From Escherichia coli (GTDB lineage: Bacteria > Pseudomonadota > Gammaproteobacteria > Enterobacterales > Enterobacteriaceae): a stretch of 64,000 nucleotides of DNA. This document shows, in pieces, positions 7,848-23,586 of this stretch (its first letter is position 1; every line of letters begins with the position of its first letter). Under the pieces are notes generated by a model. It did no database searches. It saw nothing but the letters and a program-made list of their open reading frames with translations, and was not told the origin of the DNA. Both the position numbers and the translations under genes were made by a program. The DNA is taken from NCBI RefSeq assembly GCF_044324875.1, contig NZ_CP172185.1; one strand, written 5' to 3'.

Positions 7848-9032
7848 TTAATTTGCAGCTTCCTGACGATGAAAACCTCGCCACCAGACCAGTAAGTTAA
7901 CCAGGGCAATCGTCGCGCCAGCCAGACAAACGCCAGCCCAACCGCCATGTTGCCAGGCTGAGGCTGAAATTAGCGAACCGGCGGCACCGCCAATAAAGTA
8001 GCTGGTCATGTAACCTGCGGTCAGGCGATTACGCGCATCAGGGTGTATTCGATAAATTACCGTCTGGTTAGTGATATGCACGCCCTGCACGGTGAGATCC
8101 AGCACCAGGATGCCGATAATCAAGGCCAGTACGGAAGTGTGGCCAAACCAGATCGCCAGCCATGAAAGTAATAGCAGCAGCAGACCGAAAGTAGTGGTGT
8201 GGTGCGATTTACCCTTATCGGCAAAACCGCCCGCCGGACGAGCACCCAACGCTCCGGCAGCTCCCGCAAGTCCAAACAGACCAATTACACCATCGCTGTA
8301 GTTAAAAGGTGGAGCGGCAAGCAAAAAGGCCATTGAGGTCCAGAGAATGCTGAAGTTGGCAAAGGTGAGGCAGCCCAGCAACGCACGGGTGCGCAGGATC
8401 TTATCGCTGATAAACATGCTGAAAACGGAACCCAACAACTGTGGGTAGTTGAGGTGGGTTTCTGATTTCATTTGTGGCAGACCACGCCATAATGCCAGCG
8501 CCATCAGTGCCATTAACACCGAGGCAACCCAAAAGACGGTGCGCCAGCCGCCGAGGTTTGCCAACAATCCGGCAACGGTCCGTGCGAGTAAGATCCCCAG
8601 CAGCAGGCCGCTCATAATGGTGCCAACCACTTTGCCGCGTTTGTCCGGTGAAGCCAGCGTCGCTGCCAGCGGAACCAGAATTTGTGCCACGACCGAGAAT
8701 AAACCGGTTAATGCCGTACCGAGGATCATCATCGCCAGCGACTGACTGCTGGCAGTGATTAACATTCCACCGGCTGCCAGTAAGGTCATGGTGACAATCA
8801 GGCGGCGGCGTTCAAACATATCACCGAGAGGAACAAGAAATAGCAGACCAGCGGCATAGCCTAATTGCGCGGCGGTAACAATAAAGCCTGCCGAACTGGC
8901 GGAAAGGGAAAAGTTACGCGCGATGGTGTCGAGCAACGGCTGGGCGTAATAGTTACTGGCTACCGCCAGACCGGTGGCGATAGACATCAGCACGATCAGC
9001 GCCGGGCTAAGCTCATGATTAGGTTTAGTCAT
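7848..9032 (-). CDS. ygaY: MFS transporter, intact (YgaY-like)
   Basis: 394-aa ORF with about 12 hydrophobic segments, between proX and ygaZ; uninterrupted here. Confidence 0.8.
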   Translation of the reverse strand: MTKPNHELSPALIVLMSIATGLAVASNYYAQPLLDTIARNFSLSASSAGFIVTAAQLGYAAGLLFLVPLGDMFERRRLIVTMTLLAAGGMLITASSQSLAMMILGTALTGLFSVVAQILVPLAATLASPDKRGKVVGTIMSGLLLGILLARTVAGLLANLGGWRTVFWVASVLMALMALALWRGLPQMKSETHLNYPQLLGSVFSMFISDKILRTRALLGCLTFANFSILWTSMAFLLAAPPFNYSDGVIGLFGLAGAAGALGARPAGGFADKGKSHHTTTFGLLLLLLSWLAIWFGHTSVLALIIGILVLDLTVQGVHITNQTVIYRIHPDARNRLTAGYMTSYFIGGAAGSLISASAWQHGGWAGVCLAGATIALVNLLVWWRGFHRQEAAN

Positions 9033-9484
9033 TATTTTTGTTCATCAGGTGATGATTAAGCTGGAAATCAATAATAGCGGATGTTGATGAATGTGGGGCG
9101 AAAGATAGATTGTTAAAATGTGCGGGTAATGGGGAGAGGGTATTTGAAGGTGAAATATGCCACTAAGGCAAATGTTACGTTCACTTCCAGACTATAGCTA
9201 CTTTGTCACTATTTTGCTGGTGAACGTGCCAGGGTGGCTCAGTCGCCACCACCCTGGCGACCCAGGCTTTTGGCACAAAATCGCCGCTACGCGGTACATT
9301 CGACTTATTTCTTACGGCTATCGGGTACGGGCGCGAGGTAACATCCCTGTAAGACGCGCCCTCGCCGCGCATCCCTGCGCGTCGCCCCGGCCTTCAGAAA
9401 ACGTCTCATCGATTTTCAGCCGGATTAAAACCATCGCTGCAATTGTTTTACTCACATGAGCATTATCTGCGCGGTTATCAATAT

Positions 9485-10477
9485 TTACTTCTGCGCTGCC
9501 AGCGCCTCATTCACCCAGCCATCGAACTGCTGCTGGTGGGCTTTGATCCAGCCATCAACGTGGCCCTGAATATCGCCTTCTGAGGCTTTGCCGTCATGCA
9601 TAATGGCGTTCTGGGCGTTAATATCTGCCACTGGTAACTGCATAATGGCAAACAGTTTCGCTGCTGCCGGGTTTTTCTCGGCCCAGGCTTTGTTGGCAAC
9701 GATATGCATGGTACTGACCGGGAAGCCGTAATTCGCGCCATTCGGCAGTTTGGTATCGGCATTTTTATCGCCCGGCAGTGCGGAGAACGGCACCTGCAAC
9801 CAGACCACATCTTTCCCCGGTTTCAGTTCGTTACTCACCCAGTACGGCGTCCAGGTGTAGTAAAACACCGGCTTACCCTCTTTGTAACGACTGATGGTGT
9901 CAGCCATCATCGCTGCGTAGTTCCCCTGATTATGCGTCACGGTATTGGTCAGTCCATACGCGGCAAGCTGGTGGTTGATCGCACCTTCGCAGCCCCAGCC
10001 AGGGTTACAGCCAGTCAAATCCGCTTTACCGTCGCCGTTGGTATCGAACAGTTTGGCGATCTTCGGATCTTTCAGTTGCGCGATGTTGGTGATTTTGTAC
10101 TGGTCGGCAGTTTTCTTATCGATCAGGTAACCCTGTGCCGCGCCGTTAACAAATACTCCTTCACGATAAAATTTCTTATCGCCACCGGCAGCTTCGTACA
10201 TGTTGTCATGCAGTGGCGTCCAGTTCACTGCGGTGAAGGTTGCATCGCCGGAAGCAAGCGAGGTGTAGCCAACGTTGTAATCCACTTCGCTGGGTTTATT
10301 GACGGTATAACCTAATTTCTCCAGCGCGCGGCTGACCAGCAGCGTCTGGAAAGTTTCTTCGGTGATGGTGCTCTGAACCGGATTAACAGTAATGCCTTTG
10401 CCCGGCAGGTCGGCAGCAAAAGTTTGTGTAGAGATAAGCGTGGCAAACGCTGTCGCAAAAAGTACGCTATGTCGCAT
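9485..10477 (-). CDS. proX: Glycine betaine/proline ABC transporter periplasmic binding protein
   Basis: ORF 9485..10519; start set at [21 protein letters not shown] (signal peptide), 330 aa; recognised as ProX. Confidence 0.93.
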
Positions 10478-23358: not shown

Positions 23359-23463
23359 CCTGAATCCTCTCGAAAGTGTGTCACTTGGGAGAGCGCCCCG
23401 ACATTTCCCGCGTCGGGTCACGCGTGTAATTGTTATTGGTTCTTTTTACCGGAGAGCGGCTCC

Positions 23464-23586
23464 GCCTTATCCGGCCGACATAGATTTATTCCTGTTCACG
23501 TACAGATTGTCGGATGCAGCGTAAACGCTTTATCCGACCTGGATTCGCGTAGGCCGGACAAGACGCGCAGCGTCGCCTCCGGCATG
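23464..23586. repeat. REP/BIME palindromic units in the gabT-gabP spacer
   Basis: GCCTTATCCGGCCGACA, TGTCGGATGCAGCGTAAACGCTTTATCCGACCT and GTAGGCCGGACAAGACGCGCAGCGTCGCCTCCGGCATG resemble REP consensus (GCCGGATG..CTTATCCGGCCTAC). Confidence 0.65.

Follow-up and report, generated by a model that had tools for sequence, protein, structure and literature searches.

Two palindromes between proX and ygaY as helices of a diverged TRIP1/RRS repeat without the G-quadruplex tract in Escherichia coli

The spacer between proX and ygaY in a 64,000-nucleotide stretch of Escherichia coli DNA (NCBI RefSeq assembly GCF_044324875.1, contig NZ_CP172185.1; the whole stretch is termed the window) carries two GC-rich palindromes. 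Comparison of sequences leaves us nearly certain that both are helices of a single copy of the TRIP1 repeat family, also named replication risk sequences (RRS), and that this copy belongs to a diverged subfamily, here called type II, at an uncatalogued locus occupied in about 10% of E. coli. The family was already described in 1999, and functional studies followed in 2023–24; what is new is the locus, and an undescribed subfamily that lacks the G-quadruplex (G4) tract. With identity and mechanism taken together, the explanation developed here is in our judgement a little better than an even call.

The first palindrome, which a sequence-only reading had described as a perfect 9-bp inverted repeat at 9229-9257, is indeed perfect and lies where it was placed, with each arm one base longer (9228-9258): GCCAGGGTGG at 9228-9237 faces CCACCCTGGC at 9249-9258 across 11 nt. 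The second, GGGCGCG(N19)CGCGCCC, exists as that reading described it, and sits about 16 nt away from the position given for it (9313-9345), with its arms at 9329-9335 and 9355-9361. A perfect inverted repeat of at least 10 bp arose in just 7 of 500 dinucleotide shuffles of the spacer, and perfect matches with arms of at least 7 bp numbered 7 against 0.63 expected, where a match is an arm/loop combination and a single repeat can score more than once. Rather than standing apart from each other, the two palindromes form helices within a single TRIP1/RRS module of about 240 nt, the parts of which are as follows.

9169-9446, minus strand: TRIP1/RRS-family repeat of type II, the stretch that can be aligned to other copies.
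9177-9416, minus strand: folded core of 240 nt with a GC content of 0.57, from the RNAalifold consensus and single-sequence folds.
9277-9416, minus strand: first 'Y', in which stem P1 encloses a stacked stem, hairpins H1 and H2 and a small hairpin.
9410-9416 with 9277-9283, minus strand: closing stem P1 (AAAATCG with CGATTTT), from the RNAalifold consensus.
9284-9294, minus strand: small hairpin inside the first 'Y'.
9363-9384, minus strand: hairpin H1, an inverted repeat with the loop C-AGGGAU-G (CAGGGATG, 9370-9377).
9329-9361, minus strand: hairpin H2, the second palindrome, with the stem GGGCGCG/CGCGCCC and the loop CAGGGATG at 9342-9349.
9228-9258, minus strand: terminal GC hairpin, an inverted repeat and the first palindrome.
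9177-9227, minus strand: last hairpin, in which ACGTTCAC at 9220-9227 pairs with GTGAACGT at 9177-9184.

TRIP1 repeats were described by Rudd 1999 and have been typed at five loci, a to e, by Li 2024 (PMC10888264): aqpZ-lysO, putP-efeU, dusC-mdtQ, alx-sstT and copA-ybaP. The same family was named 'replication risk sequences' by Pham 2023 (PMC10287960) and 2024 (PMC11194060). Against K-12 TRIP1a the window copy shows 82.2% identity over 157 of 275 nt (E 5.9e-39), and it is about 83% identical to copies that lie between yegH and asmA. The proX-ygaY site is none of the five typed loci, those loci being a property of the catalogue and not of the family. The Li 2024 catalogue (PMC10888264) used an 80% coverage filter; since only about 57% of TRIP1a aligns, which falls below that filter, both proX-ygaY and yegH-asmA are missing from it.

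The window copy resembles TRIP1 in its homologous sequence, its intergenic position beside transporter genes, its length of about 270 bp, its patchy presence among strains, and a GC-rich 'double-Y' fold, which occupies a unit of 146-273 bp in TRIP1 and a core of 240 nt here. It differs in that its two 3' hairpins have been rewritten by compensatory changes, and in a core GC content of 0.57 as against 0.62-0.65. Its likeness to RRS is that of membership of the same family: the 222-bp RRS corresponds to the folded core in the window, and the single strands of both are strongly prone to secondary structure. RSA or BoxC repeats, considered first, were dropped once the literature pointed to TRIP1.

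Family members are present in 5425 of 5426 E. coli genomes, at a median of 3 places and at up to 10, and the lysO-aqpZ and dusC-yohP spacers of K-12-like strains were recovered among them (L005 and L006). The exact 21-mer of H2 finds copies in E. coli, E. albertii, E. whittamii, Kluyvera (5 copies per genome), Pseudocitrobacter and Trabulsiella, to which BLAST adds Citrobacter and Klebsiella (11 places in one chromosome). No second TRIP1 copy was found within the 64-kb window. Published catalogues undercount the family, and even K-12 has an unlisted shortened copy.

Comparison of the window with K-12 and with locus L003, as filled and empty sites, places the repeat within a segment that varies among E. 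coli strains.

9123-9484, minus strand: variable segment of 362 bp, the TRIP1 allele, which begins directly past the proX stop codon.

In K-12 and most E. coli this segment is replaced by a 101-bp pair of repetitive extragenic palindromic (REP) sequences, and the K-12 and L003 spacers, with their two REPs, are 191 bp long. The TRIP1 allele is carried by 543-550 of 5426 complete E. coli genomes (~10%), the figure of 543 counting those with matches to 80% or more of the spacer; in the rest, similarity is confined to the 90 bp beside ygaY (9033-9122), which are common to essentially all E. coli, at about 95% identity where the rest of the spacer is missing. Neither target duplications nor terminal inverted repeats were seen at the allele junctions. 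The repeat shares with REPs and bacterial interspersed mosaic elements (BIMEs) the habit of an intergenic, GC-rich palindromic repeat at gene 3' ends, and a REP pair is the alternative allele here. The two kinds of repeat differ in that sequence similarity between them is nil, and in that REP units are about 35 bp long and number hundreds per genome, while TRIP1 is about 270 bp long and has 1 to 10 copies.

The fold is maintained by covariation. Across 24 full copies (alignment A3; alignment A4 extends this to Klebsiella and Citrobacter) the RNAalifold consensus has 65 pairs, 21 of them with compensatory double changes. Standard pairs fill 98.9% of cells, against 37-47% when the partners are slid by 1-3 columns, and the slid controls contain 2-5 compensatory pairs as against the 21 observed; none of 500 shuffles reached the observed pairing values. 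Compensatory changes affect 4 pairs of H1, the stem of which is CGCGC/GCGCG in the window and CCCAC/GUGGG or CCCGC/GCGGG in other copies, 4 pairs of the terminal GC hairpin (between the subfamilies) and 3 pairs of the last hairpin, and the stems covary further in the Klebsiella and Citrobacter copies. The upper stem and loop of H2, UACAGGGAUGU, are invariant across the 24 copies; the Klebsiella and Citrobacter copies show covariation in the upper stem and retain A-G-G-G-A-(U/C) as the loop. Since compensatory change has preserved both fold and loops in copies that occupy orthologous loci of separate genera, we conclude that selection on the element continues.

Folding of the spacer and its conservation across Enterobacteriaceae had been proposed as checks on a structural element, and both bear it out. 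The minus strand of 9170-9420 is far more stable than its shuffles, as RNA (-100 kcal/mol, z -3.55) and as DNA (-58.2 kcal/mol, z -5.38), and the complementary DNA strand also folds beyond shuffles (z -4.26); fold and loops are kept from Escherichia to Klebsiella and Citrobacter. With good conservation and a stable predicted structure, the structural reading stands. Thus, of what the sequence-only reading had offered, a repeated structural element is borne out, and its description as REP-like, decayed or a terminator is not. A decayed element does not accord with a fold retained by compensatory substitutions across genera. As for REP-like units, the REP consensus (…CGTCTTATCMGGCCTAC), with up to 3 mismatches allowed, has no match in the spacer, its matches in the window lying solely at 23.46-23.57 kb, and an Rfam scan gave no naRNA4/REP match within 8800-9700.

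On the G-rich strand, G-T combinations occupy 44 cells in 12 pairs, as against 7 A-C cells in 5 pairs, a bias that points to selection acting on that strand in single-stranded form. Deletion variants were noticed in the copies of Kluyvera cryocrescens and the Escherichia sp. set: L018 has lost the segment between its two CAGGGATG loops, as if by loop-to-loop recombination, L037 is without H1, and L017 is without part of the terminal hairpin.

Two subfamilies can be told apart. Type I includes the K-12 lysO and dusC copies and those of Kluyvera, Klebsiella and Pseudocitrobacter; type II includes the window copy, the yegH-asmA copies and those of Trabulsiella and Citrobacter. In type I the 5' arm of the terminal hairpin holds GGGGGTGCAGGGGGCGGCGG, given by Pham 2024 (PMC11194060) as the G4 tract of RRS, and the last hairpin is GCGCTCC/GGAGCGC. 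The type II counterparts are GGGT(C/T)GCCAGGGTGGTGG and ACGTTCAC/GTGAACGT, and both helices, terminal and last, are preserved between the types by compensatory change. At the site of the type I tract the window has GGGTCGCCAGGGTGGTGGCG (9244-9263), so that in this respect it differs from RRS. A G4Hunter-type score reaches 1.84 at the type I tract; its maximum in the window copy is 1.08, away from the tract.

Type II copies between yegH and asmA in other E. coli occur either way round relative to the two convergent genes, between inverted REPs, and in 2272 of 5426 genomes the best match has an identity of 95% or more, in 1485 being full length.

L002:2979-3257, L007:2506-2784 (approximate) and L001:3006-3284: yegH-asmA copies of other E. 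coli.

This locus, too, is outside the published five-locus catalogue. In K-12 MG1655 it holds a 160-bp type II remnant (NC_000913.3 2139501-2139660, plus strand; L041:3502-3661), which is 98% identical to the 3' part of a full copy, is without P1, H1 and H2, and is not one of the three copies that the TRIP1 and RRS papers name for K-12. The Adams 2021 supplement lists a Term-seq 3' end at NC_000913.3 2139476 on the minus strand, antisense to the yegH 3' end. Because this end, on the asmA strand, lies about 25 nt past the remnant, transcription from asmA appears to pass through the remnant and to give C-strand RNA.

Two further observations concern the surroundings of these copies. In strain N96 the gene for an IS110-family IS621 transposase (L001:1752-2732) lies beside the yegH-asmA copy, and IS621 targets REPs. 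A link to IS621 and its bridge RNA was rejected because other strains carry the yegH-asmA repeat without IS621, so that the association looks incidental. JUMPstart RNA (Rfam RF01707; 45 and 57 bits) is found upstream of wza at L002:841-879 and L007:4885-4923, the position expected for the colanic acid cluster.

The loss of the tract bears on the DNA-level activity described for the family. Type I copies block DNA polymerases at the G4 tract, and an RRS yields RecA/SSB-coated gaps anywhere it is inserted with its G-rich strand as the lagging-strand template; inverted copies give no RecA/SSB gap peak (Pham 2024, PMC11194060). The K-12 RRS form an inverted pair, one on each side of Ter at 0.915 and 2.229 Mb, and lie about 650 kb from dif (Pham). 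On the K-12 map proX is at 2.81 Mb, about 1.2 Mb from dif. In the dusC copy, on the same replichore as proX, the G-rich strand runs in the direction of the minus-strand dusC and serves as template for the lagging strand. That of the window copy runs in the direction of proX (plus strand in K-12), and the plus strand of the window has a positive GC skew, as expected given K-12 synteny. Since proX is opposite in strand to dusC on the same replichore, and given the positive skew, we infer from sequence that the G-rich strand of the window copy is the leading-strand template. In other genera, short contigs have too noisy a local GC skew for copies to be oriented by it.

The window copy therefore differs from RRS in the template that carries its G-rich strand, in lying about 1.2 Mb rather than 650 kb from dif, and in being carried by only about 10% of strains. 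With no G4 tract and with its G-rich strand on the leading-strand template, it probably does not act to trigger programmed gaps in the lagging strand. A G4 tract oriented on the template of the lagging strand is the basis of the RRS model; type II copies keep the fold and two GGA loops without that tract, in either orientation. This suggests that the family does not work through the tract alone, and makes the type II subfamily a natural test set of whether the G4, the hairpins or the loops are the functional feature.

Our preferred reading of how the element works is one that we hold tentatively, as something short of probable: that the double-Y fold is itself what is selected, and serves as a 3' untranslated region (UTR) structure of proU rather than as a gap trigger. 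Both proX and ygaY have the G-rich strand as their sense strand. The Adams 2021 supplement places the primary 3' end of K-12 proX at 2808169, 45 nt past the stop codon and at the base of the first REP hairpin, and K-12 ygaY is transcriptionally insulated from proU (Rashid 2023). No palindrome in the spacer is followed by a U-run on the proX strand, so that none is an intrinsic terminator, and a consensus scan found no terminator-like site on the minus strand of 8900-9600; the proU terminator that had been proposed here is thus not found. Because the REP of the proX 3' end is missing and no intrinsic terminator stands in its place, proU transcripts would run into the element and fold there.

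On the preferred reading the G-rich strand would fold on itself into the double-Y set of hairpins whenever it is single-stranded, and selection would preserve that fold rather than one particular G-tract. The folded 3'-UTR RNA may protect or define the 3' end of proU mRNA, in place of the REP, and may limit read-through into ygaY. The structure would also display two C-ANGGAN-G loops, candidate binders of a CsrA-type protein. E. coli strains differ, then, in the end of the mRNA for proU osmoprotectant uptake, which has a REP hairpin in most and the 240-nt module in about 10%, and the difference between alleles could change proU mRNA stability and read-through into ygaY.

Several points weigh against this account. 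Rho-dependent termination may occur upstream of the element or within it. Copies of the lysO-aqpZ class have their G-rich strand antisense to the gene on either side, so that an RNA role is not the function of the whole family, for which experiments have demonstrated activity solely at the DNA level (Pham 2024, PMC11194060). Two inherited pairs account for most of the G-T bias, which agrees equally well with selection on single-stranded DNA. The orientation, finally, is taken from K-12 synteny and a modest GC skew rather than from a mapped oriC and dif.

A related but different possibility, which we regard as unlikely, is that the element is a CsrA-binding RNA module, an enterobacterial relative of the TwoAYGGAY RNA, in which a CsrA dimer bridges both hairpins; the element may then titrate CsrA or subject its host transcript to CsrA control. 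The loops of H1 and H2 are both C-ANGGAN-G and lie 28 nt apart. Across copies the H1 loop varies as CA(U/G/A)GGAUG and the H2 loop as CAGGGA(U/C)G, and both retain GGA in every copy from Escherichia through to Klebsiella and Citrobacter as the stems beneath covary, a conservation that polymerase stalling alone leaves unexplained. In the window both loops are AGGGAU; in most other copies the H1 loop is AUGGAU.

Searched against Rfam, the window copy gave a match to TwoAYGGAY (RF01731) within the first 'Y', at 9286-9414 on the minus strand (28.2 bits, E 0.045 in a 901-nt search). TwoAYGGAY scores on the same strand in every copy tested, at 28-31.5 bits (29.1-31.5 in four other copies), and the family shares Rfam clan CL00106 with CsrB. 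The gathering score of TwoAYGGAY is 43 bits, however, and all copies fall below it; by curated score the repeat is not a TwoAYGGAY member, and no Rfam family matches at curated thresholds, these sub-threshold TwoAYGGAY matches being the only ones. Gardner and Eldai 2015 (PMC4333381) predicted TwoAYGGAY to be a CsrA-binding RNA. The two share a closing stem around two adjacent hairpins with A-N-GGA-U loops closed by C-G. They differ in that the window loops are AGGGAU and not AYGGAY, that TRIP1 has about 100 nt of extra 3' hairpins, and that TRIP1 is a chromosomal repeat with documented DNA-level activity.

Two further points favour CsrA binding. The consensus selected by CsrA in systematic evolution of ligands by exponential enrichment (SELEX) is RUACARGGAUGU, which we take H2, UACAGGGAUGU, to fit at 11 of 12 positions. 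In the type II copy of E. whittamii (L025, ~8610-8685) a 75-nt insertion adds a third such hairpin, GGCCC-AGGGAU-GGGCC.

On the other side, TRIP1 sequence is absent, on both strands, from all CsrA peaks obtained in K-12 by crosslinking and immunoprecipitation sequencing (CLIP-seq; Potts 2017 Supplementary Data 1), a data set that concerns type I copies and one growth condition, and neither dusC nor ybjE was flagged among CsrA targets in a look-up of these K-12 CLIP-seq data. The GGA strand of the lysO-aqpZ class, as noted, is antisense to both neighbours. Consensus scans found neither a sigma-70-like promoter nor a terminator belonging to the repeat itself, at the window copy or at three other copies. 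A stand-alone small RNA gene was rejected on these negative scans at four copies. The element resembles the Csr/Rsm small RNAs in having several GGA motifs in hairpin loops, two in the window copy, and differs from them in that they are independent genes with a promoter and an intrinsic terminator, signals that the scanned copies do not show.

CsrA binding by the element is thus a hypothesis, drawn by analogy with TwoAYGGAY. In its broadest form, it is conceivable, if doubtful, that TRIP1/RRS would be the enterobacterial branch of a TwoAYGGAY/Csr-clan fold, in which selection keeps a double-Y with two CsrA-type hairpins and not the G4. If that were true, type II copies that lie in sense orientation behind a gene and have no G4 would serve in 3' UTRs as RNA modules that bind proteins, and the K-12 copies would produce replication gaps as a by-product of this fold or through a second use of it.

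We consider it less probable again that the window copy is a working RRS, in which DNA polymerase stalls at the folded DNA strand during replication, leaving a transient single-strand gap, with an effect on local topology. It belongs to the same family and has the same overall fold as the lysO and dusC copies, both of its single DNA strands fold beyond shuffles (by the z scores given above), and the conserved structure of the G-rich strand is as compatible with selection on single-stranded DNA as with selection on RNA. The copies of Pham 2024 (PMC11194060) act wherever they are inserted, and the RRS C strand also blocks Pol II in vitro. However, the G4 tract held responsible for the block is missing, the leading-template orientation is the one without a gap peak, and the locus, about 1.2 Mb from dif and occupied in just 10% of strains, is away from the flanks of Ter.

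That the repeat is selfish or a relic, with a fold that served its own spread as single-stranded DNA, as REP hairpins do for RAYT transposases, and with no role for the host, is more improbable still. Its patchy presence, its locus-specific types, the existence of shortened and internally deleted copies, the occurrence of yegH-asmA copies in both orientations, and the way in which it supplants another repeat, the REP, at an identical site are all what such an element would leave. However, no transposase is associated with it, the junctions have neither target duplications nor terminal inverted repeats, and no copies were found on phages or genuine plasmids. Copies at orthologous loci across genera keep fold and loops by compensatory change, and the double deletion of RRS in K-12 is conditionally lethal, requiring a compensating amplification (Pham 2024, PMC11194060).

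Carriage by phages or plasmids was considered separately and rejected: the search for phage carriage of the repeat gave zero phage matches, and the plasmid matches are chromosomal. Several of the PLSDB 'plasmid' records that contain the repeat (among them L039 and L040) are multi-megabase or carry housekeeping genes (sppA, selD, topB; torA, torD, yeiP), and they look like chromosomes or chromosomal fragments filed as plasmids.

Least credible, to the point of being very improbable, is the original combination of a proU intrinsic terminator with decayed REP-like units, for, although the element lies directly downstream of proX, GC-rich hairpins exist and the alternative allele does hold REPs here, one of them at the proX 3' end, the minus-strand hairpins have no U-run, the spacer has no REP consensus at up to 3 mismatches, and the sequence is a well-conserved member of another family.

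The remaining features of the locus are listed below; according to the list of open reading frames (ORFs), the gene order on the minus strand is proW, proX, spacer, ygaY, ygaZ, as in E. coli.

9485-10477, minus strand: proX coding sequence from the ORF list, with the stop codon ending at 9485.
7848-9032, minus strand: ygaY, a major facilitator superfamily (MFS) transporter of 394 aa, with its start at 9032.
9033-9122, minus strand: AT-rich, ygaY-proximal part of the spacer, GC content 0.34, outside the repeat.

The ProX of the window matches that annotated at the identical locus L004 with about 100% identity, and 9033-9122 is presumed to be the ygaY promoter and 5' UTR. The ygaY reading frame is complete (394 aa) in the window and in many strains; the K-12 MG1655 annotation makes it a pseudogene. 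The spacer spans 9033-9484, as the sequence-only reading had it, and measures 452 bp where 450 bp had been given. That reading had also stated that it contains no ORF, which is right in so far as no credible gene is present, although mechanical ORFs of 100 aa (9157-9459, plus strand) and 63 aa (9181-9372, minus strand) overlap it. Neither has a Pfam match above cut-off, and the frames of both are broken by 1-nt indels between paralogous copies of the repeat; on these two grounds a protein-coding gene in the spacer is ruled out.

Two observations elsewhere in the window may be recorded. The sole matches to the REP consensus, at 23463-23565, form an inverted REP-like pair. From 28000 to 40000 the GC content falls to 0.39-0.45 and the GC skew is strongly positive, which suggests a horizontally acquired island.

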